A stretch of 64,000 bases of DNA from Lama guanicoe (lineage: Eukaryota). The translations under genes were made by a program, and so were the position numbers. Shown here in pieces: positions 29,101 to 53,370 of the stretch (position 1 is its first letter; every line of letters begins with the position of its first letter). Where the stretch lies: contig MU057069.1 of assembly GCA_013239625.1 (NCBI GenBank), positions 678,018 through 742,017 on the forward strand, written 5' to 3'. The notes beneath the pieces were generated by a model. The model was not told the DNA's origin. It was given only the letters and a program-made list of their open reading frames with translations, and made no database searches.

Positions 29101-32100
29101 TTCATTCATTTTTCTTTTGGGACTTTCTTTTTAGTTTGTAAGAGCTCTTGATACGTGAGTGAAAATAATGTGTCGTTCACAGAGTAAACTGTCATATATA
29201 CTGCAAATTTTTTTACCCAGTTTGCCCTTTTATTTGGTTACGGGGGTGTTATAAGGTATAAAAATCTTACATTGTTGAATCTTTTGATTTCCACTTTTGC
29301 GTGTATGCTTCAAAAGACCTTCTTTACCTCAAGATCAGCTGTTCACTGGTGTTTTCATTTCATTTAAAAATCTTCTAATTTATATGCATTTACATTTATT
29401 TCCTAGTTTGATTTACAAATATGTGTAGTTTGGACTTAGAAAAAAACTTAAGTATCCACCATTTCTTTTGCAGCAAAGATCTGTGGAGAAGATGGGCAGG
29501 TGGATCCCAACTGTTTTGTTTTGGCGCAGTCCATCGTCTTCAGTGCGATGGAGCAAGAGTAAGTCAGCCTCATCCTTGCGCATTTCTCGTCCTTGGGAAT
29601 TTGGGTTCAGTCTTAAGAATAGAACTAAAAACAAACTACCTTTGAGGATTTAAGTACTTTGAATGTTTACAGGGTCTTATAGGCATACTCTGTGACTACC
29701 TTGGTTAATGGTTTCTTTTAAATATAAATAATGTGAATTCTATTAAAAATAAAACAGATTTTTATTTTTACTGCTGATATTTCCTAATTTAAAGAATTTA
29801 ATTCTGAAGTCACCTGCGGATGACTGTGATTGGTGTGATGCGTGATTGGTTTATCTGTGTAAACAGTGCGTGTCTTCAGATGGGCACCCTCGCTTGTTAG
29901 TGCATGCTTGAAGCTTAATGGATGCTGTGTCACTGAATTCACATAGATTTGTTGAAACTGCCTCCAGAGTTTTGTTAGATCAATTCTTGCTGCATGCCCT
30001 CTAAAAAAATCTACGTATTCATTCTTTCACGTAACATTTATGAAAAGGGTGCTGTGCACAGTCGGATGTAGGACCTGCTTTGAGGAAAATTACAGCCTAA
30101 AAAGAGCAATAGGCCATGTTCTTTAGTTGCTGTAATAAAAGGTAGCATGTGGCAGGTATCAGGGGAGAGCTACCGCCCAGTGCGAGGTGGGGAGACCTTT
30201 TACAGCTGGAGGAAGCAGAACGCACCGCGAGAAGAGGGGGAGCGCTGGCCTGGGCTGATGAGCTGCAGGGGCGCAGGGTGGAAAGACTGTATCACCCCGG
30301 TTGAGCTCTTTGCTTGGTCGATCCCTCACGTTTTACCTTTTTGTCCATGTGTAGGCACTTTAGTGAATTTCTCCGAAGTCACCATTTCTGTAAATACCAG
30401 ATTGAAGTGCTGACCAGTGGAGCTGTTTACCTGGCTGATATCCTCTTCTGTGAGTCAGCCCTCTTTTATTTCTCTGAGGTAAAGTCTGCATTTCCTTTTG
30501 CACTCCGTTAGGGCATTCCGGCCTCTAGACCCTAACTGCTCGGCCCCTGGCTGTGGAAGATAGCACACATATCATTTCCAAAAACATCAGTTGGATTTAA
30601 GTACTTTTATTACTGTTCTGCGTTGCGTATAATGGCAAGAGTACTCAATGGCATATTAGATTAAAGAGAACATGAAAATTCGGTGTGCAACAACTAATTT
30701 TGAAAAACCTAATTAAAGTTCTTCTTATAAAAAATGCAGGTATTTAGTTATTTACAACTGTTTTAAAACTGCAGATTTGGTACTTGACTCCAGTGCATAA
30801 ATGTTTGTGACCAGACTTCAGAAGAGAGAGGGGAAGCAGGGAGTTTTCCCTGCTGTCATCAGTCTCCTTGAGCTGCTCGGCAGGGCCGCCCAGCGAGGCT
30901 TCCGGCTCTGCAGCTGTTAGGCCGCAGCAAATCGCTTCATTGCAAAGCAAGTGCCTCTTAAGCAGCGAGGATTCCAGGTCTCACAGGCAGCAACTTAGCC
31001 TCACGCTTGCATCCTGCCTCTTCACAGAAACAGTTACTCAGTGGATTTATTTTTTCACTCCCTCTTTTTGCCATAAATTTAAGTCAGCATTTGTTCTGGT
31101 TAATACGGCTGTGTGGAATGGTGGAAATGACCAAGTATAAAAGATTTGGTCCGAAAAAGAAGAGCAAAAACACCCAAAAGTCAGCAGAAGGAAGGAAATA
31201 ATAAAGATCAGGGAGGAAATAAATATAACAGAGATTTTAAAAAAAACAGAAAAAAATCAATTAAACCAAAAGCTGTTTTTTTGAAAAAGTAAATAAAATC
31301 AACAAACCTCTGGCCAAACTCAAAAAGAAGAAGAAAGCACAAATAAGCAAAATAAGAAAGGAAAATGGAGAAATTACAACAAATAACATAGATATACAGA
31401 ATATCATACAAGAATATTATGAAAAACTGTATGGAACCAAAATGGATAACCTAGAGGAGATGGACAAGTTTCTGGAAACATACAGTCCACCAAGAATGAA
31501 CCGAGAAGAATCTGAACACTTGAACAAACCGATCACTAGAAATGAAATCAAATTAGCAATAAAAAACCTCCCTACAAATAAATGTCCAGGACTGGNNNNN
31601 NNNNNNNNNNNNNNNNNNNNNNNNNNNNNNNNNNNNNNNNNNNNNNNNNNNNNNNNNNNNNNNNNNNNNNNNNNNNNNNNNNNNNNNNNNNNNNNNNNNN
31701 NNNNNNNNNNNNNNNNNNNNNNNNNNNNNNNNNNNNNNNNNNNNNNNNNNNNNNNNNNNNNNNNNNNNNNNNNNNNNNNNNNNNNNNNNNNNNNNNNNNN
31801 NNNNNNNNNNNNNNNNNCACATAAAAAGGATTATACATCATGATCAAGTTGGGTTCATCCCAGGGACACAAGAGTGGTTCAACATATGCAAATCAATCCG
31901 TTTAACACATCACATCAACAGGAGAAAGGACAAAAACCACATGATCATCTCAATAGATGCAGAAAAAGCATTTGATAAAATTCAACACCCATTTATGATA
32001 AAGACTCTTGCCAAAGTGGGTAAAGTGGGAACATATCTCAACATAATAAAAGCTCTATGTGACAAACCTACAGCCAGCATAGTACTCAACAGTGAAAAAC

Positions 32101-35100
32101 TCAAAAGCTTCCCACCAGAATTTGGGACAAGACAAGGCTGCCCACCATCACCACTCCTATTCAACATAGTCCTGGAAGTCCTAACCACAGCAATCAGGCA
32201 AGAGAGAGAAATAAAAGGGATCCAAATTGGAAAAGAAGAGGTGAAAGTGTCACTATATGCAGGTGACATGATACTATATATAGAAAACCCTGAAAGGTCC
32301 ACACAAAAACTAGTAGAAATAATCGAAGAACTCAGCAAGGTAGCAGGTTACAAGATTAACGTTCAAAAATCAGTTGCATTTCTTTACACTAATGATGAAT
32401 CAACAGAAAAAGAAAGTGAAGAAACAATCCCCTTTAAAATAGCACCCAAAGTAATAAAATACCTAGGAATAAATCTAACCAAGGAGGTGAAAGACTTATA
32501 CATGGAAAACTATAAAACACTGATTAAGGAAATTAAAGAAGACTTAAAAAAATGGAAAGATATCCCATGCTCCTGGATTGGAAGAATCAATATTGTTAAA
32601 ATGGTCACACTGCCCAAGCAAATCTACAGATTTAATGCAGTCCCTATCAAATTACCCAGGACATATTTCACAGAACTAGAACAAATCATAATAGAATTTA
32701 TATGGAACCATCAAAGACCTAGAATTGCCAAAGCATTACTGAAGAAGAAGAAAGAGGCTGGAGGAATAACTCTCCCAGGCTTCAGACAATACTACAGAGC
32801 TACAGTAATCAAAACAGCATGGTATTGGTACAAAAACAGACATATAGACCAATGGAACAGAATAACCCAGAAATGAACCCACAAACTTTTGGTCAACTAA
32901 TCTTCGACAAAGGAGGCAAGAATATATAATGGAATAAAGACAGTCTCTTCAGCAAATGGTGTTGGGAAAACTGGACAGCAGCATGTAAATCAATGATGCT
33001 AGAACACTCACTCATACCACACACAAAAAATAACTCAAAATGGATCAAAGGCTTAAACATAAGACAAGATACAATAAACCTCCTAGAAGAAAACATAGGC
33101 AAAACATTATCTGAAATACATCTCAAAAATTGTCTCCTAGGGCAGTCTACCCAAGCAATAGAAATAAAAGCAAGAATAAACAAATGGGACCTAATGAAAC
33201 TTACAAGCTTCTGCACAGCAAAGGAAACCATAAGTAAAACAAAACAACAACCTGCAGAAAGGGAGAAAATTTTTGCAAATGAAACCGACAAAGGCTTGAT
33301 CTCCAGAATATATGAGCAGCTCATACGACTTAATAAAAAAAACAAACAGCTCAATCCAAAAATGGGCAGAAGACCTAAACAAGCAATTCTCCAGTGAAGA
33401 CATACAGATGATCAACAGGCACATGAAAAAGTGCTCAATATCACTAATTATCAGAGAAATGCAAATCAAAACTACAGTGAGGTGTCACCTCACACTGGTC
33501 AGAATGGCCATCATTCAAAAGNNNNNNNNNNNNNNNNNNNNNNNNNNNNNNNNNNNNNNNNNNNNNNNNNNNNNNNNNNNNNNNNNNNNNNNNNNNNNNN
33601 NNNNNNNNNNNNNNNNNNNNNNNNNNNNNNNNNNNNNNNNNNNNNNNNNNNNNNNNNNNNNNNNNNNNNNNNNNNNNNNNNNNCATATATCCAGAAGGAA
33701 CCCTACTTCAAANNNNNNNNNNNNNNNNNNNNNNNNNNNNNNNNNNNNNNNNNNNNNNNNNNNNNNNNNNNNNNNNNNNNNNNNNNNNNNNNNNNNNNNN
33801 NNNNNNNNNNNNNNNNNNNNNNNNNNNNNNNNNNNNNNNNNNNNNNNNNNNNNNNNNNNNNNNNNNCCATTTGTAGCAAATTGGATGTTCCTGGAGAATG
33901 TCATTCTAAGTGAAGGAAGCCAGAAAGAGAAAGAAAAATACTATATGAGATCGCTTATATGTGGAATCTAAAAAAAAAGGGAGGGAACATAAATACAAAA
34001 CAGAAACAGACTCATAGACGTAGAATACAAACTTGTGGTTGCCAGGGGTGGGGGCAGGGAAGGGATAGACTGGGAGTTCAAAATTTGTAGATACTGACAG
34101 GCATATGTATAATAGATAAACAAGGTTATACTGTATAGCACAGGGAAATATATACAAAATCTTGTGGTAGCTCATAGCGAAAAAAATGTGACAATATATG
34201 TATGTTCATGTGTAACTGAAAAATTGTGCTCTACACTGGAATTTGACACAACATTGTAAAATGACTATAACTCAATAAAAAAAATGTTTGAAAAAAAGAT
34301 TTGATCTGGTTAGTTTACTATTTGAATGTTTGCCAGTGAGGAGCCACTAATCCATCTTTACTGTCATTTTTATTCTGGTTCACTAAAGTTTGCATTCAGC
34401 TGCATGGTGGTTGGGTTTTTTGTTGTTTTTAGGTTTTTGTTTTGTTTTGTTTTGTTTTTTCTCCTAAAAGAATATTTTTAAACTTCTCGATCTCAAATGA
34501 CTGTAAGTTGCTGGCTGACATTAACTAAACATGTAGATCTGTTTGGAGGGGGGTGGGAAAGGTTGGTTTTTTGTTTAGTGTTTGTTTTTTCCTTTGTGTC
34601 TTGTATATTAATAGTTGGAACTTACATATGGATTGTAGTTGGTGAGAGAAATCTGCTTATAGTCTTACTTTCTTCTTCTGTATTTTTTCTTCCCAGTACA
34701 TGGAAAAAGAGGATGCAGTGAATATCTTACAGTTCTGGTTGGCAGCTGATAACTTCCAGTCTCAGCTTGCTGCCAAAAAGGGCCAGTATGATGGACAGGA
34801 AGCACAGAATGATGCCATGATTTTATACGACAAGTGAGTTTGATTGATAGGTGCATTCAGCATTTCGCAGATACTTACTGAGTATTTGGTGTCTTCTTTG
34901 GAAATAAAGAATAAACTCAGTCTCTGCTGTCAAGGAGCTCACAGGGAGCCACGTACAAGCTGCTTTTCATTGGGGTGTGCACAGTGTGGGGGTCCTTAGA
35001 GTAAAAGTTGTTGATGGGGAAAGGGGAGGTGTGTGTGTGGCAAGTGGGATGGTGGCGGTGAGTTCATTGAGGGTTTCACAGAAGGAGGATTTGGATTGGA

Positions 35101-38100
35101 TTCTGCTGGCCAGAGAAGGTGGGAAAGGACATTCTTGGCAGAGGCACCAGCACAAGCAGAGCCATAGGAACCTGGGGAGCATGTCACTAAAGACACTTGG
35201 CTCTGGGTAACTGACACCTGAGCAGGGTGTGTAAGCGGAGGAGGAACTCGCTGGACTGGACTGCAGAGGGCCTTAAATACCTGTGCGGTGGTGACCATGT
35301 CTTCTGGTGCAGAGCTGCTCAGCCAGACTGACGACTCAGAGGGGGATAGTCTTTCAGTAGTTTTCAGTGAAAATAAGAGGGCAGCAAAATCTTACAGTGA
35401 GCAGAACGGAAAACTCTATCCCTCTTTTTTTTCTTTTTTCTTTTTTTTTTTTATTTTCTTTGTTCTGTAAAGAAAAGTAATATGTCTCTGTGTCCATAAG
35501 CAAGTGGTAAGAGGAGGACTGGAGGATGGAGAAGAGTCCGGGCCAGGGGTCCTGGCCGCTGCTGCGCAGGCTCGCGCTGGGCTGTGAGAAGGAGAAGCGC
35601 CCAGGAGCTCCTCGGTCCTCCTCTCAGAGAGTCTGACTCAGCCGGTTGGAGGTGTGACCCAGGAGCCTTTAGTTTTAGAAGACACCCAGGTGATTCCGAT
35701 AAATAGCCAGATTAGGGATCTAGTCTGATTTTTCCCATTCTGCAGATAAGAAAACTGAGGCTCAGAGGGTAGTGCCTTTCTCAAAGTCACAGGGTGAATT
35801 AGTGGCAGAACTTGGACTGGGTTGCAGCTTTTAATGTTTGTCCACTGTTTACTCTAGTATAATGTATTTGTGGGGAAGTGTTACATAGGAAACGTTGTTA
35901 TATGTATGTTAATGTAGCAAGCATTTACATTTAGATATTTGGTCTGGAGTGCTCCAAAATTTAAATCATAGAGGAATATTTGCCAACTTATTTGTTGCAA
36001 GATGGGAGACTCACTTTTTGTTAAGAAAATGCTGGTAACAAGAAAAAAGAAAGTTTTTTCCTGCTGGAACTGAAGAGTGGATCTAAGGATGGTGGCGGGT
36101 TGACTCAGGTACCTCGGGGGCAGCGGGAATAAAGGTTGCGGCAGGGCTGTCAGCAGCCCCTCTCTGTGTCCTGCGTCTGCGGGCTGAATCAAGTAGCCCC
36201 ACAGAAGATTCTCTGGTGTAGGGGCCAGAAGTTGCTAATAATTGTGTGGCATTCGGTTTCACTTTGGCTGTCTTTCTTCCATAGGTACTTCTCCCTCCAA
36301 GCCACACATCCTCTTGGATTCGATGACGTTGTGCGATTAGAAATTGAATCCAATATCTGCAGGGAAGGTGGGCCCCTGCCCAACTGTTTCACCACTCCGT
36401 TACGTCAGGCCTGGACGACCATGGAGAAGGTAACCAGACTTCAAAGGCATTGAACTACGAGAAGTTTTTACCGCTGGAACCCAAAATACTATGTGGGGAA
36501 AACCAGTTGTAACAGAACGGTGGAAGGTGGAAGCCGCGCGGCAGTGGTGGGGCGCAGAGGCGTCGCTGGGTCTCACGTGGTGCGCGTTCGTCTTCACAGA
36601 CTGACTGGCCTCGGGCAGCTCCTCACGTTCTCTACCTTTGCTCATCTGTGAAATGGACTAATACAGATACTTACCTCAGTGTAGTTTGAGGGTAAAAATG
36701 AGGTAAGATGTATAGAGTGCGTGTTAGGGACACAGCATCCGACTCAGTAAGCATTAAAAGTGTGAAGTGCTCTCCTTACTGCCATTGTCACACCCGTGGG
36801 TCACTGCATAGTGTTCTGCAGCATTAGCCTGGAGACGATCCAAGTGTCTCGCCAAGACCCCTGTGGGGCTGGAGCGCTAGTTCTCAGCGTCGCGGTCGCT
36901 TACAGGGCCTCAGTAATAACTGCCTAATAACCAAGTGTTAGAAGTGGTGCGTGGATCAGTCTTCTAACGAACCAGAGCGGGCTTTACTCGGCATTGCAGG
37001 GCCCAGGATGAGCCATGAGTTTATTTGGCTTAAATGTTTCCTGGGCATCTAGGCAGAAAGGGATTACGAGACACCACATGTAGAAACTGGGTTTCAGGAA
37101 TATGGAAGAGTTACGCATAAAAAAAATCATTGAAGGGCTAGCGGTAAACTGGATGGACCATCAGCTATTGCCCAGGGTTGATCATTTTTTCATGATTGAA
37201 ATGAAAAGTTTCTGATCGTAAAGGAAAAGTTCAAGATCTGTATCATACAAAGAACATAAACTTTCTGGTTAATAAAGTTAAAATACAGAAAAACAAACTG
37301 TAAAATACTCCTTACTAACTGTGTATTTAAGGAACTTAAGCCAATTTTAAGAATACAGTCAAGGATGCTTCGTCCAGTAGCACTGAGCGTCTCTGTGCTG
37401 GACGCTGGTGGTGCAGCGGTGTGCAGGACGTGGTTCCTGCCCTCCTGGACCTCCGTCTGTGAGGAAGGCACATACTAAACACAGGCATACATATTTACAA
37501 TTGTGCCAAGTGTTGTGAAGGAAAAGTTGGTAATGGGAAATGCCAATAATAAACGTGGAAACTTAGCATCAATATAATTTTTAAATGCAGATAAAAACAT
37601 CATGTAGCATTAGACATTTCTTAAACAATGATTTAAAAAAAACAACGCAGTGTTGGAAAGCCTGATGTGTAGTGATACGTCTTCAACATCCTCCGCGTTA
37701 TCAGAGCTAAAACCTTCAGACCATTCCACTCAGTAATCACACCCCTGGTAATTCATCTTAAGGAAATCAGTTCAAAAGTCAAAATCAGTGGATATGCAAA
37801 AATATTTATAACAAACCAGAAAAATCTAGTTTCAAATTATATCCACTCCATGGACTGGTTTCTGGTCACTAAGAAGTCTTGATATCAAGTCCATTCAGTA
37901 GTTGCACGGCAAGTGTTTTGGGGGCAAAGTACCTGTAAATTGTAAGTTCTCATTATAGTTTGAATTAGAAAGTAAACTGTATACAAAGGGGTGATATTTG
38001 GAATGTAACAAGGAGAAGCAAAATCATGTGTGGTGACTGGTAGCATTGTAGGTAGAACTGTGTTTTGAAATAAAGTTGTGGTGTGTGTGATTCCACCATT

Positions 38101-41100: not shown

Positions 41101-44100
41101 CCGTCTCAGCTCCGCCGCTTACCGGCAAGCTCTTTGACCCCTTTGTGTCTCAGTTTCTCTGTCTGTAAGATGAGGGTAGTGTCCTACTTTACTGGGTTGT
41201 TGGGGGGATTGAATGAGATGATACATGAAAAGCATCTGAACCAGTGCCTGGTATCAGTGGGCACTCGATAAATGTCATTACCACCGTCCTTGCACCACCG
41301 CACACGAGGCTGGTGAGTGTCATGTTTGCATGGTGTGTTTTAGGCTGTCGCTTCCACTTTCATTTGGTTCACATGTCAGCTGTTTCAGAGTCTCTGCCTT
41401 AAAAGCAAAAATCAAGTACCAAGACACCAATATGATTTATTCTGGACTGTACAACTATCACAGTCATCCCTCAGTGGCAGCAGGGGATTGGTTCCAGGAC
41501 CCCCTCGGATACTGAAATCTGAGGATGCTCAAGTCCTTTACCTAAAGTGGCTTACTTAGTATTTTAAACCTGTGTACGTCATCTCTAGGTTACTTATAAC
41601 CCCTAATGCAGTGTCCATGCTGTGTAAATAGTTGTGAGCACAATGTAAATGCTATGTAAATGGTTGACAGTACACAGCAAATTCAAGTTTTGCTTTTTGG
41701 AACTTCCTGGAATTCTTTTTTTCTTCCTGAATATTTTCAGTCAGCAGTTGGTTGACTCTGTAGAGGGTGAACCCGCAGATATGGAGAGCCAGCTGTACTT
41801 GGAAAATGGAATAAAATCATTCCTTTGTATTTAAGAATTACTAGGTTGTTTATTTTGTCTGTAACAGGAAGATTTGCCCATACTCCTGTGATACACCACT
41901 TCTTGCACTTTACCGTGGATTGAATCATGAAATCATTGCCTCTTCCCTAAAGATGGCTTGAAAACACAGAACCCTGTGTAAAGGCTTGATTCCCCCACCT
42001 CAGTCCCAGCAGTACCACAAAAAGGAATTTCAGCACGCTCAATTGCGTTCATCCGAAAGTAAAGTGATAGTTGACAGACCAAGGAGTCTGGAAAGTACCT
42101 TGGAGAGAGCAGGTGGTTGTCCTCGGCCGTGTTGGGGTTGCAGTAGTCTTCATTTCTTCTTGTAGGAAATGGTGGACAGTAAGCTGGTGACTTCATGCCA
42201 TTCTTAAGGAATGGTTGGTTCATTTATTTCAAATCTTACTTGAGAAAGTCTATCAGCTGCAAGATGTTTTATTTCTGTAGTTTTTGTGTGTGTGTAAAAT
42301 AAATATATATAAAAATTCATTAAATTTAAATTTGTAAAATAAATACATATTTTTTGACTTATAAAATGGGTCAAAAATAGGGAATAATTATTTTCCTCAA
42401 TCTTCAGAGGTAGTTTTCAGTGTTTGTTTTAGCTTTATGATTTTAGCATCTTCCTGCAGTTTTCCAGAAGGCAAACAAGCCTGCACCAGTTGGTACGTTG
42501 GTCCCCATGTATGAATCTGACTCACTAGGAAGGCCCTCTGTAAAAGAAGATCCACTTTTTGTGAAATGGAGTAACTTGCAGACACCACAAGATTTGTCTT
42601 TCTTCTTCAGCTAACTTTCAGTTACAAATGTGTTAATCTCTCATGAAAACCTGAGTTTACAGGTGAGGCTGAGCCCCCTTATTGCACAGCAGGGCCTGTT
42701 GTCTCCCTTCCTCGAGGGTGGTCACTGCTATGTTGTAGTGTATGTTTTTGTTTCTTGCGTTTATGTAACTGATACTCTGTATCTTGTGCTTTCACTCACA
42801 GTGAATTTTGAAGATTTTTCTGTTAGTCCACACAGATTTACCTCATTTTAACCATGTTAGAGTGTTCTATACATAATTATAGCTCGTGGCTGTGGCAGAA
42901 TAGTCCGTAGTGTGCTTTGTTACTGTTTGGCCATTTTGGTATTGATGAGTATTTAAGTTGCTGGCAATCTTACTGTTAAACCGTGTAGCAGGGGACTTAT
43001 TTTTCTGTTTCCTAGTGCCAAGAAGCAGATTTAAAATTTTAATAGCCCTTCCCAGTTTACCTTTAAAAGGATCTGTACATTTTCCATTCTTACCAATCAT
43101 TAATAAAGATACTAATTTTCCCCACATCCTTGTCAAAATAAATAATATCAAAGTTTAAACTTTTTCAGTAATCTGGGGTTATTGCTTATGAGATTGAGCT
43201 TCTTTTGGGCTGTTTGTTGGTGGTTCAGATTTTTCTTCTATGAATGGCTGTTCATCTCCTTTTCACATTTTTCTGTTGGGTAATTCCATAGCGATTTGTC
43301 GGAATTCTGTGTGTTTCTGGATATTAATTATCAGTTACTAACATCTGTTAAAAATAAGGCCTTTCACTGTGTTCTTTGCCTTCTAAGTTTGCTTTCTGTT
43401 ACTATACAATGTATATAATTACAACATATTTTGATCTTGTTAGGGCAAGTCCTACCTTTCTGCCTCTTTTACAAAGTTATTTTGGCTATTCTTATGCCTT
43501 TTCTGTATGAATTTTTATAACTGAGTTATCTACTAATTCACCATGTTTCATAAACTTTCTGAGGACCTTGAGTGGAATTGCTTTGGCGTAAAGATGACTT
43601 TCTGTGGGGGTGGTTCTTTTGATGTAAGCCCCACTCTGAGTAACATGGGATAGACGTAAATTGTATTTCTGGCTTTCTAGATCTAGATGAGGTGCTTAAA
43701 AATTGATTTTTTTCTTCTTAATTTAAAATTGATGTTATAAATTATATTCTTTTCATCCTTACCTAGGAAGATGACGTTTGGAAGAGTGAGTGACTTGGGG
43801 CAGTTCATCCGGGAGTCTGAGCCTGAACCTGATGTAAAGAAATCAAAAGGTTTGTGGTGTTTTTATTTACTGCTCTCGTCTCACCTCTACTCACGTTAGT
43901 CACTGACTGTAAGTGAAGGACCATTGGGATACAGACTGTTTCTTTTACAAAGTGACTGCCGTCTCTGACCCTGCGTCTGCAGTCATGCATGGGTATCAGG
44001 GCTATACAGTCGCTCTGACCAGAAGGTATTGAACCTGCTTTCCTGTCACAGAGGCACGTCTGTGTGGAAAGGCACTTGTCACCTTTCTATTTAAAGGCAG

Positions 44101-47100
44101 TACATCCAGTCCAGGTTGGACTTGAGGTTTATCTTGAGACCCTTTATTGTATTAGATTTCTCCTAAATTGCTGAAAATTATGATGAAATAATAATATGGA
44201 AAATACTAATAGGTTGACATTCAGTTCCTTTGTTTAATCAGCAAAAGAGAGTGTGACTAATTCCAAAAGTTAAACACAGAAATCCTTTTGACAGGTATGT
44301 TCTTTGTGACTGACTTCAGCTTCCAAACAACTGGTTATGCAGGAATATTTTGGGAACCAGTGTAGATCCAGTCAGAGAATATCTAGAAATTTTCCAGTGT
44401 GGTTGAACTGACAGTGCTGCCTCGAGTAAAAAAAAATACTAACTTACGTAAGAAGAAAATGCTCCATTTTGACAAATGTGTCTAAAGTTAAGAGCTCTTG
44501 CTCATCTTGGTGTTGAATGGAATAGAACCACATTCCTAGCGTGTTTATCTTAGTTTTGAACACATGTCGTCGGGGGATGAGTCGCACCGATTTATGTTGG
44601 TGGATAATCTGCTTTGGGGTCAGATAGAAATTAACGGAGTGAGCAGAAAGTGCAGCAGTCGTTGAAGTAGTTTAAACCATAAACCAAAAAAGGGCCCGTT
44701 AACCTACTTGTCTTCATTAGTTCATCCCAATAATTGGTTTTATTCCTGTTTTGCCAGAGAAGTCTGAGGTACACAGCTGGGAAAAGCATAAAGGTGCAAG
44801 GACGTCTACACAGTTCTTTCAGTAAATGATTTTTTCAGGCCTCTGTGCACTCACACTGGCAGGTTAGAGGGCACAGATCCTGCTGTCAAGAGACTTACAG
44901 TCGAGCGTGTCTTTATCGGGCAGAAGATGTGGGGATGCACGGGAGGCTGGAGCGGGAAAGCCACACGATGTGAGCGATGTTGTCAGAAGGGCGACCCCAC
45001 GGCCGTTCGGAGCGTAGACTGTCGGGGCGCGGGGGGCAGGGAAACGACGTTCTCGCCGCGGTCCGTGTAAGGGGCGAGGACGGTGGCCGTGGGTCCGGTA
45101 GCGGAGGAATGGTGGGGTTTGGTTCTCTGAAAATGGAGGCAACAGGATCGCGTCTCTGCCAGCAAGCCCGTGCCTCCGGTTACTGGTGTTACTGCTGTAA
45201 CCGAGATGCACCACAGCAGGTAACGACTGGTAGTTCCTGCAGTCTGAGTAGATACGTCTGTCTGTCCCGGCGCTTCCGTTAGTTGTCAGGTGTCTGTGAG
45301 TCGGGTGTTTTTCAGTGAGTGAGTGGCGTCGCGTAGGAGCTTACAGACTCAGTTCACTCGCTCAGCAGGCACTGGAGTGACCCCTGTGTGCGGGACACTG
45401 CGCTGGGTCCCAGGGAGGCAGCTGAGAGGGCGTGGCCCCTGTTCCGCGGCGCTGCCTGGGCAGGCCTGTCGTGCTGCTGCCCTGGGGGACGCCTGAGCCT
45501 TTGGGTGCTCTGGGTTGTGTTCCTTTCCTCACTGCTTCCTCCCTCATGTCTCTTCCAAAGCGGAAGGTGTACCTGAGGCCTGATGGTTCAAGTTACACGT
45601 TTTGGTTAGCCTACGTCATGGGTGATGCTACATAGTGTTTTTAAAAGGAGAATAGATGTGTAGAGAGAGGTACTTACATCTCCGTCTCCTGAAAGGACGC
45701 AAGAAGATGTAGCCTAGATTGCTTTGGAGATAAGAAGAGGGAGCCTTTACTTTCCACTCTACCCTATTCCTCTCCTTTCTGAGTTTCCTCACTCCACTTG
45801 CTGCTTAGCCACCCCCCCACGGCATCCTCTTGCCCCTTCACTGTGACCTTGAGTGGCCCCTGGCTGCCTCTGCACCTTCACCTCGAACGACGAACAGCGC
45901 TTCCCTTTGCAGAGTGAGCTCCAGCTGGACGCTCCTCCATTCTTCGGAGGCCCCCTCCTTGAGGGCGTCTGCGGCCCCTCCCCTCACAGACGCCCTCTTC
46001 CGAGGAGACCTCCCAGCCCACGTGGTCTGGGGCCGTCCACCCCACCAACACGTCACTTCTTCGTCTTCTTGTTCCTGGTCTGAAGTCATCTTGTCCATTT
46101 ATTTGCATGCTTGTTCATAGTCTCATTTCTCTTCCATTACTAGAGTATCACCCCTCTGACAGCAGAGATTTTGTCTATCTTATTTGGCATCGCATTCCCT
46201 GATTCTAAAACTACGCCTGGCACGTGGTAGGTACTCACTGAATTAATTAACCGTGAAGAATTTCAGTGGATGTTATCTGCGTGGTAAGATTACGGGTTTT
46301 ATTTATTTTATTTAAGAAGAAAATTGTTCTTGGTGACACAGACACTAAGTTTTCTCATCCAAATTGTTTCATTCTTGTGAAAATATTCAGAGCTCCGCTC
46401 CCCTCTTCTCAGACCCAAATGCCGGAGGTTTCTGAGCGTTTTCAAGCTCATTCAAATCTTAGATGATGCATCTGTGGGTGCCCCTCCTTCTACAAGTGAG
46501 GACGTTGAGGATCAGGGGAGCTGCAACTTGTTGGGGGTCACCGAGCAGAGTGATAGCAACCCTGGGGCTTTGCGTCCGAGTACCATGTTGACAGGGTTGT
46601 TTGCAGTTCAGCTCTGCTTCCTGTCCCTCCCTCTCCTTGCTGGGGGCAGCTGCAAAGAATCTTTGTCGTTTACCAACCTGTGGTTTCATTTTGGATTTTA
46701 AAACTCCAACAGTAGAGCACAGAAGAAAGGGCTGAATTTTGAGGCAGTATATCTCTCTTTTGCAAATGTGAGAACTTTGCTCTCAGGGCAAGCAAGGTAA
46801 TTTTAAAAGTTACCTTCGAGTTGTCTGGGACAAAGTGTAGCAAGAAGGAATTGTGAAGGGCGTGGTGGGCGGGTAGTCCCTGCAGCTCAGCCCCTGTGCC
46901 GGGGTGCAGTGGCGGGAGGTGAAGCCCTGCTTGCGCTGGGAAAGCCCCTGCCTGTCACAGGAAGAAGCCTGCGTCACCGTCATTCAGGCACCAGAGTTTG
47001 TAAGCAGAGAGCGGTGAGGTGCATTTTTCTGCCCGTCGTCTAGGAATGAATGGGAGTTGGGGAGAGGCCGGAATTAGCCTGGCCACGTAGTAGAATTTGC

Positions 47101-50100
47101 TAGTAATGCAGAGAGAAGAAAAAGAAGAATGGAGGGTAGGTAATGGTAGCAGGAATTAGAGAGAAGATCAGGTTTATAAGACTTCCCAGGGGGAATTCAG
47201 GAGACTGCATCCAGGGTGGAGTTTGGTGACAGATTTCATATGGAGAGTAATGAGGAAGGTAGATGAGTTTTAACACGAGTTCTCTAGATGAAAAATTACA
47301 ATGTTAATTTTTAATAGAGGATTAAGCTAATGTCTGAGCTGGAGGCTGCAAGGAAGAGAGTAGGTGCCTTGGAGCACGTTGGGGCGGTTTGTGAGTGGGA
47401 GACCGTCAGTGCAGCGAGGCTGGGGGTCCCACAGCCGCCAGGGACGTCTGGCACATCACGAAGTGTTGCGGCCCTGGTGGCTCTACCTGGCATTAAACTT
47501 AACCGACCAGCGTTCAGACTTTTAGCTAATCATAACAATTATGCAGGGGGAAGGATCCAGGCTTTTGTTTCCCATGAATGCTGTAGTTGCATGGAACCAT
47601 AGAACTGGAGAGCTGGGTCCCAGTCCTTGAACTAGTCAGGGCCTTGCCCGGGAAACGATCTGCCAACCACTTGGTTTAAGGCAGCGTCAGGATGCAAGCC
47701 TGTTTGTATGAATGAAAGGAGACGCTGTGTATTTAACTCCTGGAAGTAGAGGCTAACCCACGTCCTCGGTGATCCCTCCGCATCTAGAGTGCAGGTGTAG
47801 ATAGGTTGTGTGTCTCCCAGGAAGCGGAGGTGTGTTGTGGCCAGGGCAGAGTGTGGCTGGCTCTTGAAGACACTGGTCTTACCCAGCGAACTCACGCGGA
47901 CCAGAGGCCCAGCGCTGAGCAGCGTACTCTGCCCTGGACGCCCTTCTGTTTTGGAGCTGAGCGGAAAGATTTGGGTCCCTGGTGGTGGATTGATACCTCC
48001 TGGTGTGCTGCTAGATTCTTACCCCAAGACCACATCCTCCTCATGGTTTTGTTTTACTCTTTGAATGTTTGCTGCAAATCTAACACTCGATAGTTTGTTT
48101 CCTCGGGTGAAGCGAGTAGAAGAAAAATCTAGAACTCTAAAACAGCTTTTCACAATTTTCAAACCTTAATCTTTGCAAGTTAAGTATCCTGTTATGGAGA
48201 CAATATAATCAGTTTTTACTTAATTTGGGGGTGAGGTTATCCCCCCCAAAAAAAAATCCATGTCTGGAAAATAGTTTTTAAATAAGGGCATTTTTTTAAA
48301 TGTAAAACTACGCATGAGATCTACATTCAGCTTTGGCTTTGTTTTCTAGGATCCATGTTCTCACAAGCTATGAAGAAGTGGGTGCAAGGAAATACTGATG
48401 AGGTAAATTCTGCTTTTGCTGCAGAGATTCCTGTTTGTAAGGGCATCTTGCCTAAGTAAGACTTCAGGTGTTCTCTGTCTCTGGTTCCCTCGGGCACATC
48501 GCTGCTTCCCTGCCTGCGATGTATCTGGAAGGCGTGGGCCTCCTAGCATCCCACAGTTGCCTGGTAGAGGCAGTGGCAGTACCTTCAGTCCAGAGACTCT
48601 GGCCCCCGAGAAATACCCATGTGGCCAGGTTTCCGTTGACCAGCAGCCACTGGTAGTCAGTGCAGAAACAGAAGCTCGGGTGGTTCCTTCCTCGCTGTCA
48701 GTTTTACTTTCAGAGGTGGAGGTTTGCTTTCTTGAGTAGTTAAGTACATTGAAAGACGAGAGTGGAAAAAGAGACATGTTTTGTTTTGATGTCTGACATG
48801 AAAGTGGTCAGGAAGTTGGGTGGCCCGTGGCTGAGTCTGGGAGGTGCTGAAGAGCATGTCAGTGTGTCGCACCTGGGGGCAGCCCGGGTCCTTTCACACA
48901 CGGATCGCGCGTGTTTCCCACTAGGCAGAGATGATGTGCATGTGCAGACCAACATTGTGTGTTGGTTCTGCTCGTGAATACGCATTATCAACAGTCTGAA
49001 CGCCTTCTTCCAGGCCCAGGAGGAGCTAGCCTGGAAGATCGCTAAGATGATCGTCGGCGACGTGATGCAGCAGGCGCAGCGCGGCCAGCCACAAGCGGAG
49101 TCCGCAGGGGTAAGGGCGGCGGCGCGCTGGCCCGGCATCGGGGACGCTGCGGGGAATTGGGTTCCAGAGATACAGAAATGTGAACGTACATAACGGAGCT
49201 CCTGCCTTTGAAGGAGTGACCGTCATAGGAATTGCCTTCTAGTTATAAACAGCTGGAGAACTCTCAGACTAAATGGAACAGCAGTTTCCAGACAGCAGGC
49301 AACAGGCAGCAGAGAGCTGTCGTCCCTGAGAGACGGGTGGCACGGTCGTGATCGCCAGTTCACTTCCCAGGAGCGGTTTCCAAAGTGCAGGGAGGGGGAA
49401 GCCTAGCAAGGTCGGAGTCTTGCTGAACCGAGGAGTCAGAAATCAGCGTTTGGAGAGCCCAAGGTGGCTAGAAGTCACAGAACAGGCACAGAAAGGAAGG
49501 ACCCGCATAGAGGGGGAGCTCCGGAGGCACTGAGAGAGGTCCTTTTAAGTCCTTGGCCATGTGCTGATCTGTATACATGTTGGGGGAGATGCCCGTTGCT
49601 AGGCAAAGAATTAGAGGGGTTAGCAGGCTGAACGGCTCTCGTGCTGTGGGGGGGCTCGGAGCGGTTTGTGCGCCCGCTGCCCGGTGAGGGCAGACCTTGT
49701 GGCGCACAAGGCGGTGTCCTTGGGAATACTCTGCCTTACTACGAGACGTGGACTAGCCCTGGAGTGAGGCGCCACAGCCAAGCTTAAAAGCAACTTCTGA
49801 AAGGATCAGACAGCTCTGCACATAACAACTGCACGCCAGAACACAGGCCAACCCCCCTTAAAGGAATGAGCCGGAGAACATCTGCTCACACCCTGTGGAG
49901 ACACCAGGCGCCTCCCCTGTTGTCTGATTGGTGAAAGCTAGGAAGCCGAGGTACCTGTGCTGAGATGGCATCCCATGTACCCTCCGTGGTCTAGAGGTGT
50001 GAATTTAGGTTTGGGTCCAGCATCACCCCTTCCCTGCCAACTTTTTTTCTTTTTTTTCGTAGAGGGGGCGGTAATTAGGTTTACTTATTTTATTTTATTT

Positions 50101-51634
50101 TAATTTTATTTTTAATTTTAATTTTTTGATGGAGGTGCTGGGGATAGAACCCAGGACTTCGTGCATGCTAGGCATGTGCTCTACCACTGAGCTATACACC
50201 TACTCCCCCCACCTCCCCCGGCCAACTTCCTAGCCAGCTTTTTACTCTGAGAACTGTCTCTACCAGAGCTTGGTTTAATTTTGAATTATTCACTGAGCTG
50301 ATTCATACCAAAGCTCAGTTCGCTTTGGCAGATTCCATCCTCTTTTCTCTGTAAGGGTGCTAATTTTTGTCTATATTTATCCTCACTGGCTCAGTCAAAC
50401 CTAAAATAGCAAAGGGCAAGATAAAGGTGTATAAAGCAATGCAAGGTAGTTATTTTTGTGATGCCGCATCATGTTGGTGGTAAATGTTTGACGGTGTGGC
50501 CGTGTTCGTTAGAAACCGTGGAAAGCAGATGCTTCAGAGGAAGGCTTTCCATCTGAGTCGTGCGTTCAGGTTTTGTCACCACGTGCTTTTCCTTTCTGGG
50601 ACATACAGACATGTTCTGCTGGGCTTCGCTCTTGCCCTTGCTGGGCTTTCTCTCTGTCTGGCCGGGGTGTCCGTCCTGCCTGTCTGCGGGGATCAGCAGT
50701 GTGTTGGAATGTAGGGGCCCTGGACCAGCAGACCTAGTTCAGGCCACTTCTAGTCAGTGCGTGTGACCTTTCGCAAGTTGCTTCTCTGCAGCCCTTCATT
50801 TCCTTATCAGTTGATCAGGGAAACTGAACAAGAAAATCTCATTTTGTAATTCTCATTCTGTGACTGCAGAAGTGTGAGAAGTCCTGCGTCCACAAAGGAA
50901 CGCCCAGCCCCTCCTCAGCCCGCTCTGGTGCCTCTCTGCTGGGAGCCCATGCCCCGCGTTTGCCTGTGGAGTGGGCCTGGGTGGCTTGCGCCGGGCCCTC
51001 GCAGCACTGCTGAGTTATCCCGTGTGCGGACGCCCCGTCACAGACAGCAGAGGCCGCGTCTTCTGTGATGTGTGCCTCCCTCCCAGTGCAGTGGAGGGAC
51101 GCTTGGCCCCAGGAGGCACGATGATCAGAGCTCCCCTCTTTCCTTCTGGAGGCTTTGGCACGTCCCACGCTGTGGCTCTGTTGTCATTTGTAGGTGGTCA
51201 CTTAGGCTGTTTCAAGTTGCTCCCTGTTACAAACAGTACTTTAATGAATGAATGTGTGTGTGCAGCTCTGCTCTTACTTACGGATACATGAGATCTAACT
51301 CCTAGGAGCAGAATTTTGTGTCAGAAAGTAGGTGTTTGGTTCTGATATTTATTACCAAAACAGAAAGATAAAAGCGGGTCTGGGTGCCAGTCCTTGTGTG
51401 ACGGTGGGGGTAGGGTGGCAGTGTGCTTGACCTCTAGGCGTCTGTTCACTGCCGTGTGAATGACGAGAGCTATAGGGCTTTACCTCCCGTGACTGTCGTC
51501 AGGTCCTGGCTATCATGAGCACAGTATACAGGTGGCATTCACTAAGTGTTGGTTCCCTTCTTCCTTAATCTGTGGTGATGTGTCGCTGGTTATAGAAATG
51601 GCCCTTACCTTTTTCTTTCTTTTTTCAGCTATGA
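8067..51634 (+). CDS. AKAP10: A-kinase anchoring protein 10 (D-AKAP2), complete 15-exon CDS, 661 aa; two RGS-like domains and a C-terminal PKA-binding helix
   Basis: Exons of 88+48+183+555+99+85+124+137+145+174+110+83+53+96+6 = 1986 nt join in frame with GT-AG introns. The translation runs [29 protein letters not shown]...[33 protein letters not shown] and matches AKAP10 as I recall it. Confidence 0.98.
9200..12180. mobile_element. Cluster of L2 fragments in both orientations, with an MLT1-like LTR at ~11300-11760
   Basis: L2 3'-end motifs (tgccaggcactgtgctaggc; gtaaatatttgttgaataagtgaa; cccaaattcacatctccagc); MLT1-like gctaccataacaaaa...aatggctcaaa. Confidence 0.6.
12320..13950 (+). mobile_element. 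Degraded old L1 fragments
   Basis: A-rich ORF2 endonuclease/RT-like remnants (aaatgtaaatagactaaa; ggaaaagatataccaggcaaat). Confidence 0.6.
14075..14246 (+). mobile_element. MER58-like hAT-Charlie MITE
   Basis: TIRs CAGGGG...CCCCTG; internal ttctgtaaaaggccagatagt. Confidence 0.75.
14685..14880 (+). repeat. Direct repeat copy 1 (~200 bp; partner at 16730-16929)
   Basis: Colinear shared blocks: catgttcagttttgggatgtg, gtgcttttgaga, taactctagag, ggagtttttaaccaaag, agagtgactttctagagtctagc, ggttgaaatcct. Confidence 0.9.
15235..15282 (+). CDS. AKAP10: AKAP10 exon 2
   Basis: cttccag|TGAAAGGC...GTTAAAG|gtgagt; (V)[15 protein letters not shown]. Confidence 0.96.
16730..16929 (+). repeat. Direct repeat copy 2 (L2/MIR-derived junction)
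   Basis: Matches copy 1; continues into a MIR to ~17090. Confidence 0.9.
19488..19670 (+). CDS. AKAP10: AKAP10 exon 3
   Basis: attatag|CTTCAATC...GACCTGG|gtaagt; (A)[37 protein letters not shown]...HFGDL. Confidence 0.96.
20670..21400 (+). mobile_element. L1MC-like 3' end
   Basis: ggtgggaatgtaaaaatggcacagccac...gtgaatccac...ctcaaaattaaaagtttaatttaaaaaaa. Confidence 0.75.
22249..22803 (+). CDS. AKAP10: AKAP10 exon 4 (start of RGS domain 1)
   Basis: ttttag|GCAGATCT...ATGAAAA|gtaagt; lies within ORF 22206..22811 ([23 protein letters not shown]...[11 protein letters not shown]...LSGKLMK). Confidence 0.97.
22960..23975 (-). mobile_element. Old L1 ORF2 fragment, antisense
   Basis: Minus ORF 23023..23220 [11 protein letters not shown]...ILKFI...[11 protein letters not shown]. 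Confidence 0.8.
23980..25625. mobile_element. Charlie1-like hAT DNA transposon remnant split by an LTR
   Basis: Charlie-like sequence at ~23980-24480 resumes at ~25300-25625 (gactgaaaagtttgaaatcattg terminus). Confidence 0.6.
24490..25225. mobile_element. MER21-like LTR
   Basis: cacaccaagcaattctccag...ggttaagggctcagtcccaca...ggctcaaagaactcaggagaacac. Confidence 0.65.
26074..26172 (+). CDS. AKAP10: AKAP10 exon 5
   Basis: ttgcag|GTATAGAA...ATCATAG|gtaagc; [32 protein letters not shown]. Confidence 0.97.
29474..29558 (+). CDS. AKAP10: AKAP10 exon 6
   Basis: ttttgcag|CAAAGATC...GAGCAAGA|gtaagt; (A)[27 protein letters not shown]. Confidence 0.97.
30355..30478 (+). CDS. AKAP10: AKAP10 exon 7
   Basis: gtgtag|GCACTTT...TCTGAG|gtaaag; [41 protein letters not shown]. 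Confidence 0.97.
31154..34293 (+). mobile_element. Young 5'-truncated LINE-1 (ORF2 RT and C-terminus, 3'UTR), sense to AKAP10, in intron 7
   Basis: ORF 31941..32876 is L1 RT ([33 protein letters not shown]); AATAAA at 34274 plus A-tail; 15-bp TSD AAAAGATTTGGTCCG (31139-31153) / AAAAGATTTGATCTG (34294-34308). Confidence 0.95.
34697..34833 (+). CDS. AKAP10: AKAP10 exon 8 (RGS domain 2)
   Basis: tcccag|TACATGG...TACGACAA|gtgagt; [45 protein letters not shown]. Confidence 0.97.
36285..36429 (+). CDS. AKAP10: AKAP10 exon 9
   Basis: ccatag|GTACTTC...GAGAAG|gtaacc; [48 protein letters not shown]. Confidence 0.97.
38127..38300 (+). CDS. AKAP10: AKAP10 exon 10
   Basis: tttcag|GTCTTT...TCTCAG|gtaccc; [58 protein letters not shown]. 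Confidence 0.96.
39040..40080 (-). mobile_element. Old L1 ORF2 fragment, antisense, unusually CpG-rich
   Basis: Minus ORF 39236..39493 retains [19 protein letters not shown]; also ttccatgtgaattttaggatcagc. Confidence 0.75.
40857..40966 (+). CDS. AKAP10: AKAP10 exon 11
   Basis: ttgtag|TCCAGTG...GCAGG|gtgagc; [36 protein letters not shown]. Confidence 0.97.
41461..41795 (+). mobile_element. MER2-like TcMar-Tigger MITE
   Basis: CAGTCATCCCTCAGT...GGAGAGCCAGCTG termini followed by TA; ggggattggttccaggacccc core. Confidence 0.8.
43767..43849 (+). CDS. AKAP10: AKAP10 exon 12
   Basis: acctag|GAAGATG...TCAAAAG|gtttgt; [27 protein letters not shown]. Confidence 0.96.
48350..48402 (+). CDS. AKAP10: AKAP10 exon 13
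   Basis: ttctag|GATCCATG...GATGAG|gtaaat; (G)[17 protein letters not shown]. Confidence 0.97.
49014..49109 (+). CDS. AKAP10: AKAP10 exon 14 (PKA R-subunit-binding amphipathic helix)
   Basis: ttccag|GCCCAG...GCAGGG|gtaagg; [32 protein letters not shown]. Confidence 0.96.
50042..50205 (-). mobile_element. tRNA-Ala-derived SINE (Vic-1-like)
   Basis: Reverse strand reads gtatagctcagtggtagagcacatgcctagcatgcacgaagtcctgggttctatccccagcacctcc, followed by an A-rich tail containing aaacctaattacc. Confidence 0.85.
51629..51634 (+). CDS. AKAP10: AKAP10 exon 15 coding part (final Leu + stop)
   Basis: Long pyrimidine tract ...tttttcag|CTA TGA, followed by sequence resembling the AKAP10 3'UTR as I recall it. 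Confidence 0.92.
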   Translation, partial: L

Positions 51635-53370
51635 CTCAAGACCTGAGATAAAGGAAATCAGCTTTTGGAGGATAAGAGAACTTTTTCCCTTTGTTGGTTT
51701 CTTCAACACAGCCGATGAAAACAGAGCACTGTATTTCTTTTCACTGATAAAAATCACTGTTGTTCCCGAGAAAGAATGGCAGACAGTCCCAGACCTCCAC
51801 CTCAAGCAGAGCGGCACGTAGACACACCTGCTGCACACAGTGTTCACACAGTGAAAGTCAGAAGCAGACAAAGTAGTATTGTTTACATTACTAGAAAATT
51901 ACTAGTTTTCCAATGGCAATAACCCATTTATGGAAGAGTTCCAGTCTGGAACCAACAGGGACCATGTGCTGTGCGAGGCAGAGGAGCACAGAGCTGAGAC
52001 CCGGTGCACGTCTGGTAACCCGTCCCTAACAGCAGCGTGAAGCAGGTAGCAGAGGTGCTTGGCCCAAGCAGGCGGGGGAGCTGGCCCCTCCGGGGGCCCG
52101 CGGTGCCGGGCGCCGGCCAGCAGCCTGCCTTCCTTCCGGTCGCGCGGGGCGAAGGCTCGTCCTGCGTCTCCCTGCACGGAGGCGGCAGTGTGGGAGGGGG
52201 CTGACGGGTCACGGGGCAAGTCTTGGTGACACTGGCCTTCTCTTTGGCGGCGGTGTATGGTTTTCATGTCGTAATAGCTCCTGAGATGCAGTGTGCTTAA
52301 AACCAGCCCCCCTGCCGCCAAAGGGCTGAGCGTCCTGAGCTCTGAGCTCTAGGGCTTGCTCCCCTGGGGTCCTGTCCTCCAAGCTCCTCCCCTTTCCCCA
52401 GTGCACGGGGAGGGACCATCCGGCAAGGATCACTCCACTCTTCCCCTTTGGTACCTTGAACAGAACGTTTATTCCCAGATGGTACAATCTTTTCAAAGAA
52501 GATGGGTGGGCAAGGGTTGAGGGAGGAGAGGCACTCGACTTTGACTGCCTCCCCTTTCTTTGCTGTGTGCCGTGACGTGTGTAGTTCGTGGCCTTTTCTC
52601 TGTCTGTCTGTTGGGCAGTGAGAGACCCCCTCACTGCACTCCCACTTGGCCGGCTTCTGGGTCTCGACCTGCTGCCACCAGCAGGGCCGCCCCGATGGCG
52701 AGCACACTCCACTGGCCGGCGGTGCCAATGCTGCCCCACCGCCCGTGACTGTCAGAGGGGAAGGAACGTTCTCTTAGGGTGTTACTGCTTTTGCTCAGAC
52801 TTTGCAAAAAATATATATATACATATAAATATATAATTATTAATCATCTCTGTCCTTGAGAAAGTCTTGAATGAATAGAGAATTTATTCCACTGCAATAT
52901 TTGATTGTATAGAGGCACACTGTTTCATCAACAGAAGAAGCGAAAAGGCTGTGTCTAAGTGTTTGGTACCATGTACCACCTGTTATTCTTCTAAAGCGAA
53001 GTATTCATGTACCTAAACCACCTTCTATTTAATTGTGTTTGATTTTAAAATATATATATGAATTATATTTAAAATTGTGTCAACTTTCTGCTTTCAGGGC
53101 ATTTATGGTTCTTCTATTGAAATGTGTTGATCCCTCCAGATACTTCCATTTGCTTTACCAAAACCCAGAATGTGAGCGGCTCCTGGACTTAGCCTTGTGT
53201 TTGGAGTGAATGGCATTAGACCTGAGGTGTTATTAGATGCATAGTCTGTGATTGACTCAAGTCTGTTCTTTTAACAAGTACTTCCATCCATTTCAGTTTG
53301 CATCAATCTCTAAATAACAGAAAAGCAATATAAAGGTCACGGAATAAACTGATTTTGGGCGACTCTTACT
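51635..53370 (+). other. AKAP10: AKAP10 3'UTR (3' end approximate)
   Basis: Follows the stop codon; AU-rich blocks at ~51640-51930 and ~52790-53350; AATAAA at 53343. Confidence 0.65.
53343..53348 (+). terminator. Candidate polyadenylation signal of AKAP10
   Basis: AATAAA at the end of the AU-rich UTR block, with GU/U-rich sequence downstream. Confidence 0.55.

Follow-up and report, generated by a model that had tools for sequence, protein, structure and literature searches.

The window, a stretch of 64,000 nucleotides from the guanaco (Lama guanicoe), contains the complete gene for AKAP10 (D-AKAP2) on its forward strand (Table 1). The GT-AG chain of 15 exons has a coding length of 1,986 nt, and its translation is letter-for-letter that of alpaca XP_031541776.1. 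The product is an RGS-domain protein with a C-terminal A-kinase-binding helix and the same exon chain, and is thus an AKAP10 orthologue. The first 30 residues encoded by exon 14 match the D-AKAP2 peptide in PDB 3im4_C with an E-value of 4.6e-10. Two repetitive stretches were also seen in the introns. Intron 7 holds reverse-transcriptase-like reading frames (31265–33970), broken by several N runs, which we take to be LINE-1 from their translation. Intron 14 holds a short T-rich tandem array (50087–50210) followed by an element that presumably belongs to a SINE-like family.

Table 1. Features of the AKAP10 locus, in positions of the window.
Feature	Position	Strand	Basis or remark
AKAP10 (D-AKAP2) coding span, 15 exons, 661 aa	8067–51634	+	Exact translation of alpaca XP_031541776.1; Pfam PF00615 on homologues
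Exon 14: PKA-binding helix and linker	49014–49109	+	8 amino-acid changes vs other mammals; GC3 0.84; 10 CpG
A-kinase-binding helix	49017–49079	+	Match to D-AKAP2 peptides, PDB 3im4_C and 2hwn_E
GC- and CpG-rich patch spanning the exon 14/intron 14 border	49040–49160	no strand	Base composition
Gly643 codon GGC in the PKA-binding helix	49056–49058	+	Elsewhere Ser, Asn or Thr
Ala659 codon GCA, position −2	49104–49106	+	Thr in most mammals
Gly660 codon GGG, position −1, final codon before the donor	49107–49109	+	Lys in 117 of 124 mammal species
Exon 15, coding part: Leu and stop	51629–51634	+	
Alternative acceptor inside the last exon	53098–53130	+	End ...GIYGSSIEMC, no class I motif; ending also modelled in whales

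The C-terminal end of camelid AKAP10

The last codons of exon 14 are GAG (49098–49100), TCC (49101–49103), GCA and GGG, and the donor GTAAGG comes next at 49110. The acceptor AG at 51627–51628 precedes exon 15, which supplies CTA (51629–51631) and TGA (51632–51634), and the two exons together give the C-terminus ...QPQAESAGL. The preliminary description of this DNA had read the same codons and the same protein end at the correct coordinates. Its human counterpart, a D-AKAP2 ending in ...QPLEKSTKL, agrees with the C-terminus of NP_009133.2 (...DQPLEKSTKL). Like human AKAP10, the camelid gene has 15 exons and encodes RGS domains, a PKA-binding helix and a Leu in exon 15. Unlike the human protein, it has Ala at −2, Gly at −1, five more differing linker residues and Gly643 in the helix.

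The camelid protein cluster has 13 members, of which 8 end in ...QPQAESAGL; these 8 come from Camelus dromedarius, C. bactrianus, C. ferus and Vicugna pacos. The other five are models with alternative endings: two end in -MTQDLR, and three are long and run into downstream sequence. A transcript-derived camelid AKAP10 protein was not found (0 of the 13 cluster members from Logan, 0 of 47 short matches with the camelid tail), and the exon 14–15 junction is therefore based on gene models and splice signals. A sequencing-run search with the exon 13–14 region recovered part of it in 20 of the 24 listed runs, six of them at 0.84–0.86 of words (two studies), and is not counted as evidence here. An assembly error as the source of -SAGL, which the preliminary description had kept in view, is very unlikely because the models of four camelid species agree. 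As all four share -SAGL, the change predates the split between camels and llamas about 16–17 million years ago.

Both the Ala and the Gly codon sit in exon 14, so every in-frame ending carries them. Candidate acceptors with at least 11 of 14 pyrimidines were collected between 49160 and 56000, and none of the 16 yields an S/T-x-hydrophobic end. This disposes of another last exon as a rescue, including the terminal exon restoring S/T-x-L that had been envisaged for this locus. The form with intron 14 retained ends in -ERT, which is no class I motif either, and the predicted acceptor at 53098 gives an -SIEMC end, also present in whale models. An isoform joining exon 12 to exon 15 (43849 to 51629) has also been modelled; it is read in another frame, ends in -MTQDLR and is without the PKA helix and the PDZ tag. 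Models of the blue whale include the same isoform, and a bat model has it with the end -MTEYLR.

Conservation of the tag and predicted PDZ binding

The last three residues of the human protein, TKL, mediate the binding of D-AKAP2 to PDZK1 and NHERF1, and their removal stops the recruitment of PDZK1 to Rab11 endosomes (PMC2781703, accessible part). The human tail had thus rightly been described as a ligand of these two proteins. Class I PDZ recognition depends on a Ser or Thr at −2 that is hydrogen-bonded by a residue of the PDZ helix (excerpts of PMC7138185). The accessible part of a preprint describes this hydrogen bond in PDZK1 domains 1, 2 and 4, where the partner is His or Tyr (bioRxiv 2025.07.21.665923). 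In the guanaco protein the last residue is hydrophobic (Leu, the junction being taken from gene models) and position −2 is Ala, which confirms the earlier claim that the class I motif is lost. Binding of the camelid -SAGL to PDZK1 and NHERF1 is predicted to drop because Ala cannot form the hydrogen bond at −2. Class II ligands are defined as hydrophobic-X-hydrophobic (PMC2891790, seen in part). The Ala is small, and the hydrophobic set named in the excerpts of PMC7138185 consists of I, L, V and F. The human AKAP10 10-mer was among the peptides of a PDZ affinity study, according to the accessible text of PMC9482650, whose data may be relevant to the choice of PDZ domains and to the binding of peptides with Ala at −2.

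We examined the tail in one model per species for 132 mammal species, and the tail could be read in 124 of them but not in the other 8; the sample comprises the best 120 of 332 and the best 120 of 630 records with at most 15 per cluster, and thus not all mammals. Position −2 is Thr in 116 of the 124 species, Ala in seven (the four camelids, pig, warthog and Kogia breviceps) and Pro in one, the wolverine, while position −1 is Lys in 117. The PDZ tag is therefore conserved. The idea that the motif is commonly degenerate across mammals, which the preliminary description had put forward as a way in which the case could fail, is ruled out by the same count of Thr. Outside mammals, T-K occurs in 31 of the 35 records that were checked (birds, crocodilians, tortoise); two had no tail, and the cobra and catfish models differ. 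The tag looks like a vertebrate addition, judged from the sequences compared, because only 8 of 150 distant representatives have the class I pattern at their end.

Tails without the Thr end in -SAKL in pig, -AAKL in warthog, -AKL in the pygmy sperm whale and -PKL in the wolverine. The pig form is well supported, its three sequence variants being carried by 123, 34 and 13 Logan contigs, and the Kogia and wolverine tails come from one gene model each. The Thr is kept in the peccary and most whales (-STKL), the hippo (-PTKL) and ruminants (-STKI). On the usual artiodactyl tree the Thr was therefore probably lost separately in camelids, suids, Kogia and the wolverine. Pig and warthog AKAP10 share with the camelid protein both the Thr-to-Ala change and the AT-to-GC bias across the gene. 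Unlike camelids they keep Lys at −1, and a separate origin is likely because the linker changes are different and the peccary still has -STKL. All lineages without the Thr still end in a hydrophobic residue. The lineage-specific uncoupling proposed earlier for this gene is weakened, since alpaca has the change too and pig, warthog, Kogia and wolverine are likewise without the Thr.

The pig, warthog and Kogia models share the end -AKL. This presumably fits the PTS1 peroxisomal consensus S/A/C-K/R/H-L, whereas the camelid -AGL does not. Import by PTS1 is PEX5-dependent. No account of the pig- or Kogia-type -AKL of AKAP10 as a peroxisomal signal was found in the literature searched. Ruminant models end in -STKI or -STEI, not -STKL. 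The tag may thus be altered in a third artiodactyl group, because some PDZ domains refuse Ile at position 0 (excerpts of PMC7138185).

Changes and base composition around exon 14

Comparison with the majority of nine non-artiodactyl mammals showed that 8 of the 32 residues of exon 14 differ (S643G, Y651R, D652G, L655Q, E656A, K657E, T659A and K660G). With the codons of the window, the minimal base changes are AT-to-GC in 9 of 10 cases, AT-to-AT in one and GC-to-AT in none. If the Cys found at 651 in other artiodactyls is taken into account, the AT-to-GC count is lowered to 8 of 9. Exons 5, 6, 8, 9 and 11–13 have no difference from the mammal majority, and because of this match the rest of the AKAP10 scaffold is, as judged from the proteins compared, under constraint.

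The change S643G lies within the PKA-binding helix and may alter its affinity for RI or RII. Gly at this position was found in 10 of 306 stored proteins with the helix, which equals the number of camelid records. By analogy, PKA anchoring itself may have been retuned, because a nearby human AKAP10 variant shifts RI-alpha binding about threefold (PMC5872355, accessible part).

The direction of change was also counted over the whole gene. The base changes were inferred from amino acids in living species, at about 585 columns in which rhinoceros, fruit bat and rabbit have the same residue; residues 1–29 and sites common to at least two other artiodactyl groups were left out, and T659A was thereby dropped. 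The resulting ratios of AT-to-GC to GC-to-AT changes are 21:1 for alpaca, 24:0 for pig, 25:0 for warthog, 11:0 for Kogia, 19:1 for peccary, 15:1 for baiji and 6:2 for wolverine, against 75:51 for 11 control species summed. Fisher tests against the controls gave p-values of 0.0006 for alpaca, 2e-5 for pig, 1e-5 for warthog, 0.007 for Kogia and 0.48 for wolverine, all of them optimistic because the control species share branches. Exons 14–15 hold 7 of the 22 differences of alpaca, compared with 12 of the 175 found in control species (p 0.002). The tail shows no such enrichment in pig (3 of 32 differences, p 0.71).

Sites on which selection for the protein does not act point the same way. The GC3 of 0.84 in exon 14 compares with 0.27–0.61 in exons 2–13, and the 60 intron bases after exon 14 have a GC content of 0.72 and 8 CpG, compared with 0.23–0.55 and 0–4 CpG after exons 2–13. 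The patch over the exon 14 border has a GC content of 0.72, 18 CpG and a CpG observed/expected ratio of 1.21, against a GC content of 0.44 and a ratio of 0.43 in the gene body. Two 100-base windows of the patch rank third and sixth of 437, and other intron CpG patches are equally strong. Further short GC- and CpG-rich patches were seen in introns and the 3' UTR (44940–45120, 52020–52240, 36500–36620 and 26980–27140), with up to 17 CpG per 100 bases, and are possibly other conversion tracts.

Gene models that read through into intron 14 give an indirect view of the same bases in other species. The start of the intron encodes M/V/I-T in 12 of 15 distinct mammal peptides, for which the possible GC content is at most 0.67. 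The same 18 intron bases have a GC content of 0.94 in the window, and the pig peptide is GRFPAR. Ruminant and bird read-through peptides likewise allow a high GC content at the intron start. Synonymous sites could be compared with a single bird: differences go towards camelid GC by 8:0 in exon 14 and by 8:5 in exon 12, in counts that are not assignable to the camelid branch. When metagenomes were scanned for exon 14 of a mammalian outgroup, one locus came up, which was bird-like by translation and too distant for branch assignment.

Possible causes of the loss

Of the four features that define an episode of GC-biased gene conversion (gBGC), two are seen at this locus; the remaining two are synonymous AT-to-GC substitutions clustered on the branch, and high local recombination with allele frequencies skewed towards GC. 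One of the two seen is the excess of AT-to-GC replacements, both gene-wide (21:1 vs 75:51) and in exon 14 (9:0), as inferred from amino acids. The other is a bias that reaches the neighbouring non-coding DNA, indicated indirectly by the GC content and the 8 CpG of intron 14 and by the read-through peptides. On balance we lean towards a gBGC episode at the end of exon 14 that brought a series of AT-to-GC changes to fixation in a tail under weak constraint, with the RGS domains and the PKA helix kept and docking to PDZK1 and NHERF1 predicted to be lost. Recombination-linked conversion over the end of the exon would have produced the run of fixations, and selection on the tail would have been too weak to resist it. 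AKAP10 would then keep its Rab-binding RGS domains and its PKA helix while being predicted to lack the docking site. The conversion as cause, the weakness of selection and the loss of binding are what we infer from these patterns. A single A-to-G change turns Thr into Ala, which explains the recurrence of this loss in suids and Kogia, whose AKAP10 genes carry the bias throughout.

The correspondence between bias and loss is incomplete, as peccary and baiji are biased yet keep the Thr, and the wolverine lost it without a gene-wide bias. A similar patch could also arise as a new CpG island, through loss of methylation. Whatever the mechanism, selection on the tail must have been weak. Episodes of gBGC specific to an exon and a lineage, with spill-over to other exons, have been described in rodents (PMC12290510, accessible part), and the pattern including the spill-over also appears in excerpts of PMC3744432. 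The camelid case resembles them in its AT-to-GC changes clustered in one exon, in the spill-over and in replacements at conserved sites. It differs in that a known interaction motif is hit, in that this recurs in separate lineages and in that the base changes are inferred from amino acids. Point changes at the C-terminus that create or abolish PDZ ligands are themselves a known mode of evolution (PMC3276551, seen in part), and the camelid motif has likewise been lost through sequence change. What is available of that source stresses gain and innovation, whereas the camelid case looks like a loss from fixation bias.

Plain relaxation, in which the PDZ link first became dispensable in camelids, through another anchor or because the need for it was gone, and the tail then drifted in a region of rising GC content, is a less probable explanation, though one to be reckoned with. 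There are seven changes among the last 11 residues and none in 6 of the 12 exons 2–13, four separate losses among 124 species suggest that the tag is not vital, and most distant homologues do without it (8 of 150 end in the class I pattern). Yet drift alone predicts neither the lack of GC-to-AT changes in exon 14 nor its GC3, and neither the intron patch nor a Ser-to-Gly change in a conserved helix. The persistence of T-K in 31 of the 35 non-mammal vertebrate records also speaks against a dispensable tag.

We consider it distinctly unlikely that binding has been kept or rewired, so that -A-G-L docks weakly through its Leu, serves as a class II-like ligand for other PDZ domains or is met by a matching change in camelid PDZK1. 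The terminal hydrophobic residue does persist in every lineage that lost the Thr. The Leu is the only residue encoded by exon 15 and lies beyond the GC patch, and its survival therefore needs no selection. The domain of PDZK1 that binds D-AKAP2 is presumably domain 4. It contacts position −2 through Tyr, not His, which would favour retained binding, but NHERF-family domains generally take class I ligands (both from the accessible part of bioRxiv 2025.07.21.665923). The hydrophobic-X-hydrophobic pattern of class II (PMC2891790, seen in part) would accommodate a rewired tail, although Ala is a small hydrophobe.

Still a little less credible is an adaptive uncoupling of PKA from proximal-tubule scaffolds in the service of camelid water or phosphate handling. 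The changes are clustered in a conserved tail (7 of 22 vs 12 of 175) and are fixed in all four camelid species, but the clustering is explained by the base-composition bias, which is also seen at synonymous and intron sites. One change is enough to destroy the motif, yet eight occurred. The loss is moreover shared by alpaca, pig, warthog, a toothed whale and the wolverine, which have no common ecology. The link to camelid renal physiology that had been offered as speculation thus found no support, as pig, warthog, Kogia and wolverine are also without the Thr. An artefact of assembly or annotation, with a real mRNA that ends otherwise, would suit the lack of transcript assemblies among the 13 camelid cluster members but can practically be dismissed, since four species' models agree, the Ala and Gly codons are common to any in-frame ending, and neither the 16 acceptors nor the retained-intron form gives a class I end.

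The camelid sequences are already public as RefSeq models, and the loss of the tail is apparently undescribed: no account of it in camelids or pig was found in the literature searched outside subscription journals, and the main text of PMC11161765 does not mention camel, alpaca or pig. If gBGC is the cause, AKAP10 offers a clean case in which fixation bias most likely removed a conserved signalling motif, repeatedly across lineages, and a caution against taking such bursts in camel genes for desert adaptation. The camelid and pig tails are ready alleles for probing the function of the D-AKAP2–PDZK1 link. The pig result carries more weight in practice, as pig kidney cells and grafts are predicted to be without a documented PKA anchor. 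One could go further and regard camelids and pigs as natural mutants in which fixation bias separately erased the link from PKA to PDZK1 in the proximal tubule, its lack in pig kidneys being one cause of the unexplained low phosphate seen after grafting; this reading we hold to be very doubtful. Low phosphate independent of PTH was reported after pig-to-primate kidney grafts in 15 of 17 animals, with AKAP and PDZK1 unmentioned in the accessible text (PMC10264453). The same excerpts argue against the graft reading, as the donor pigs have high serum phosphate.
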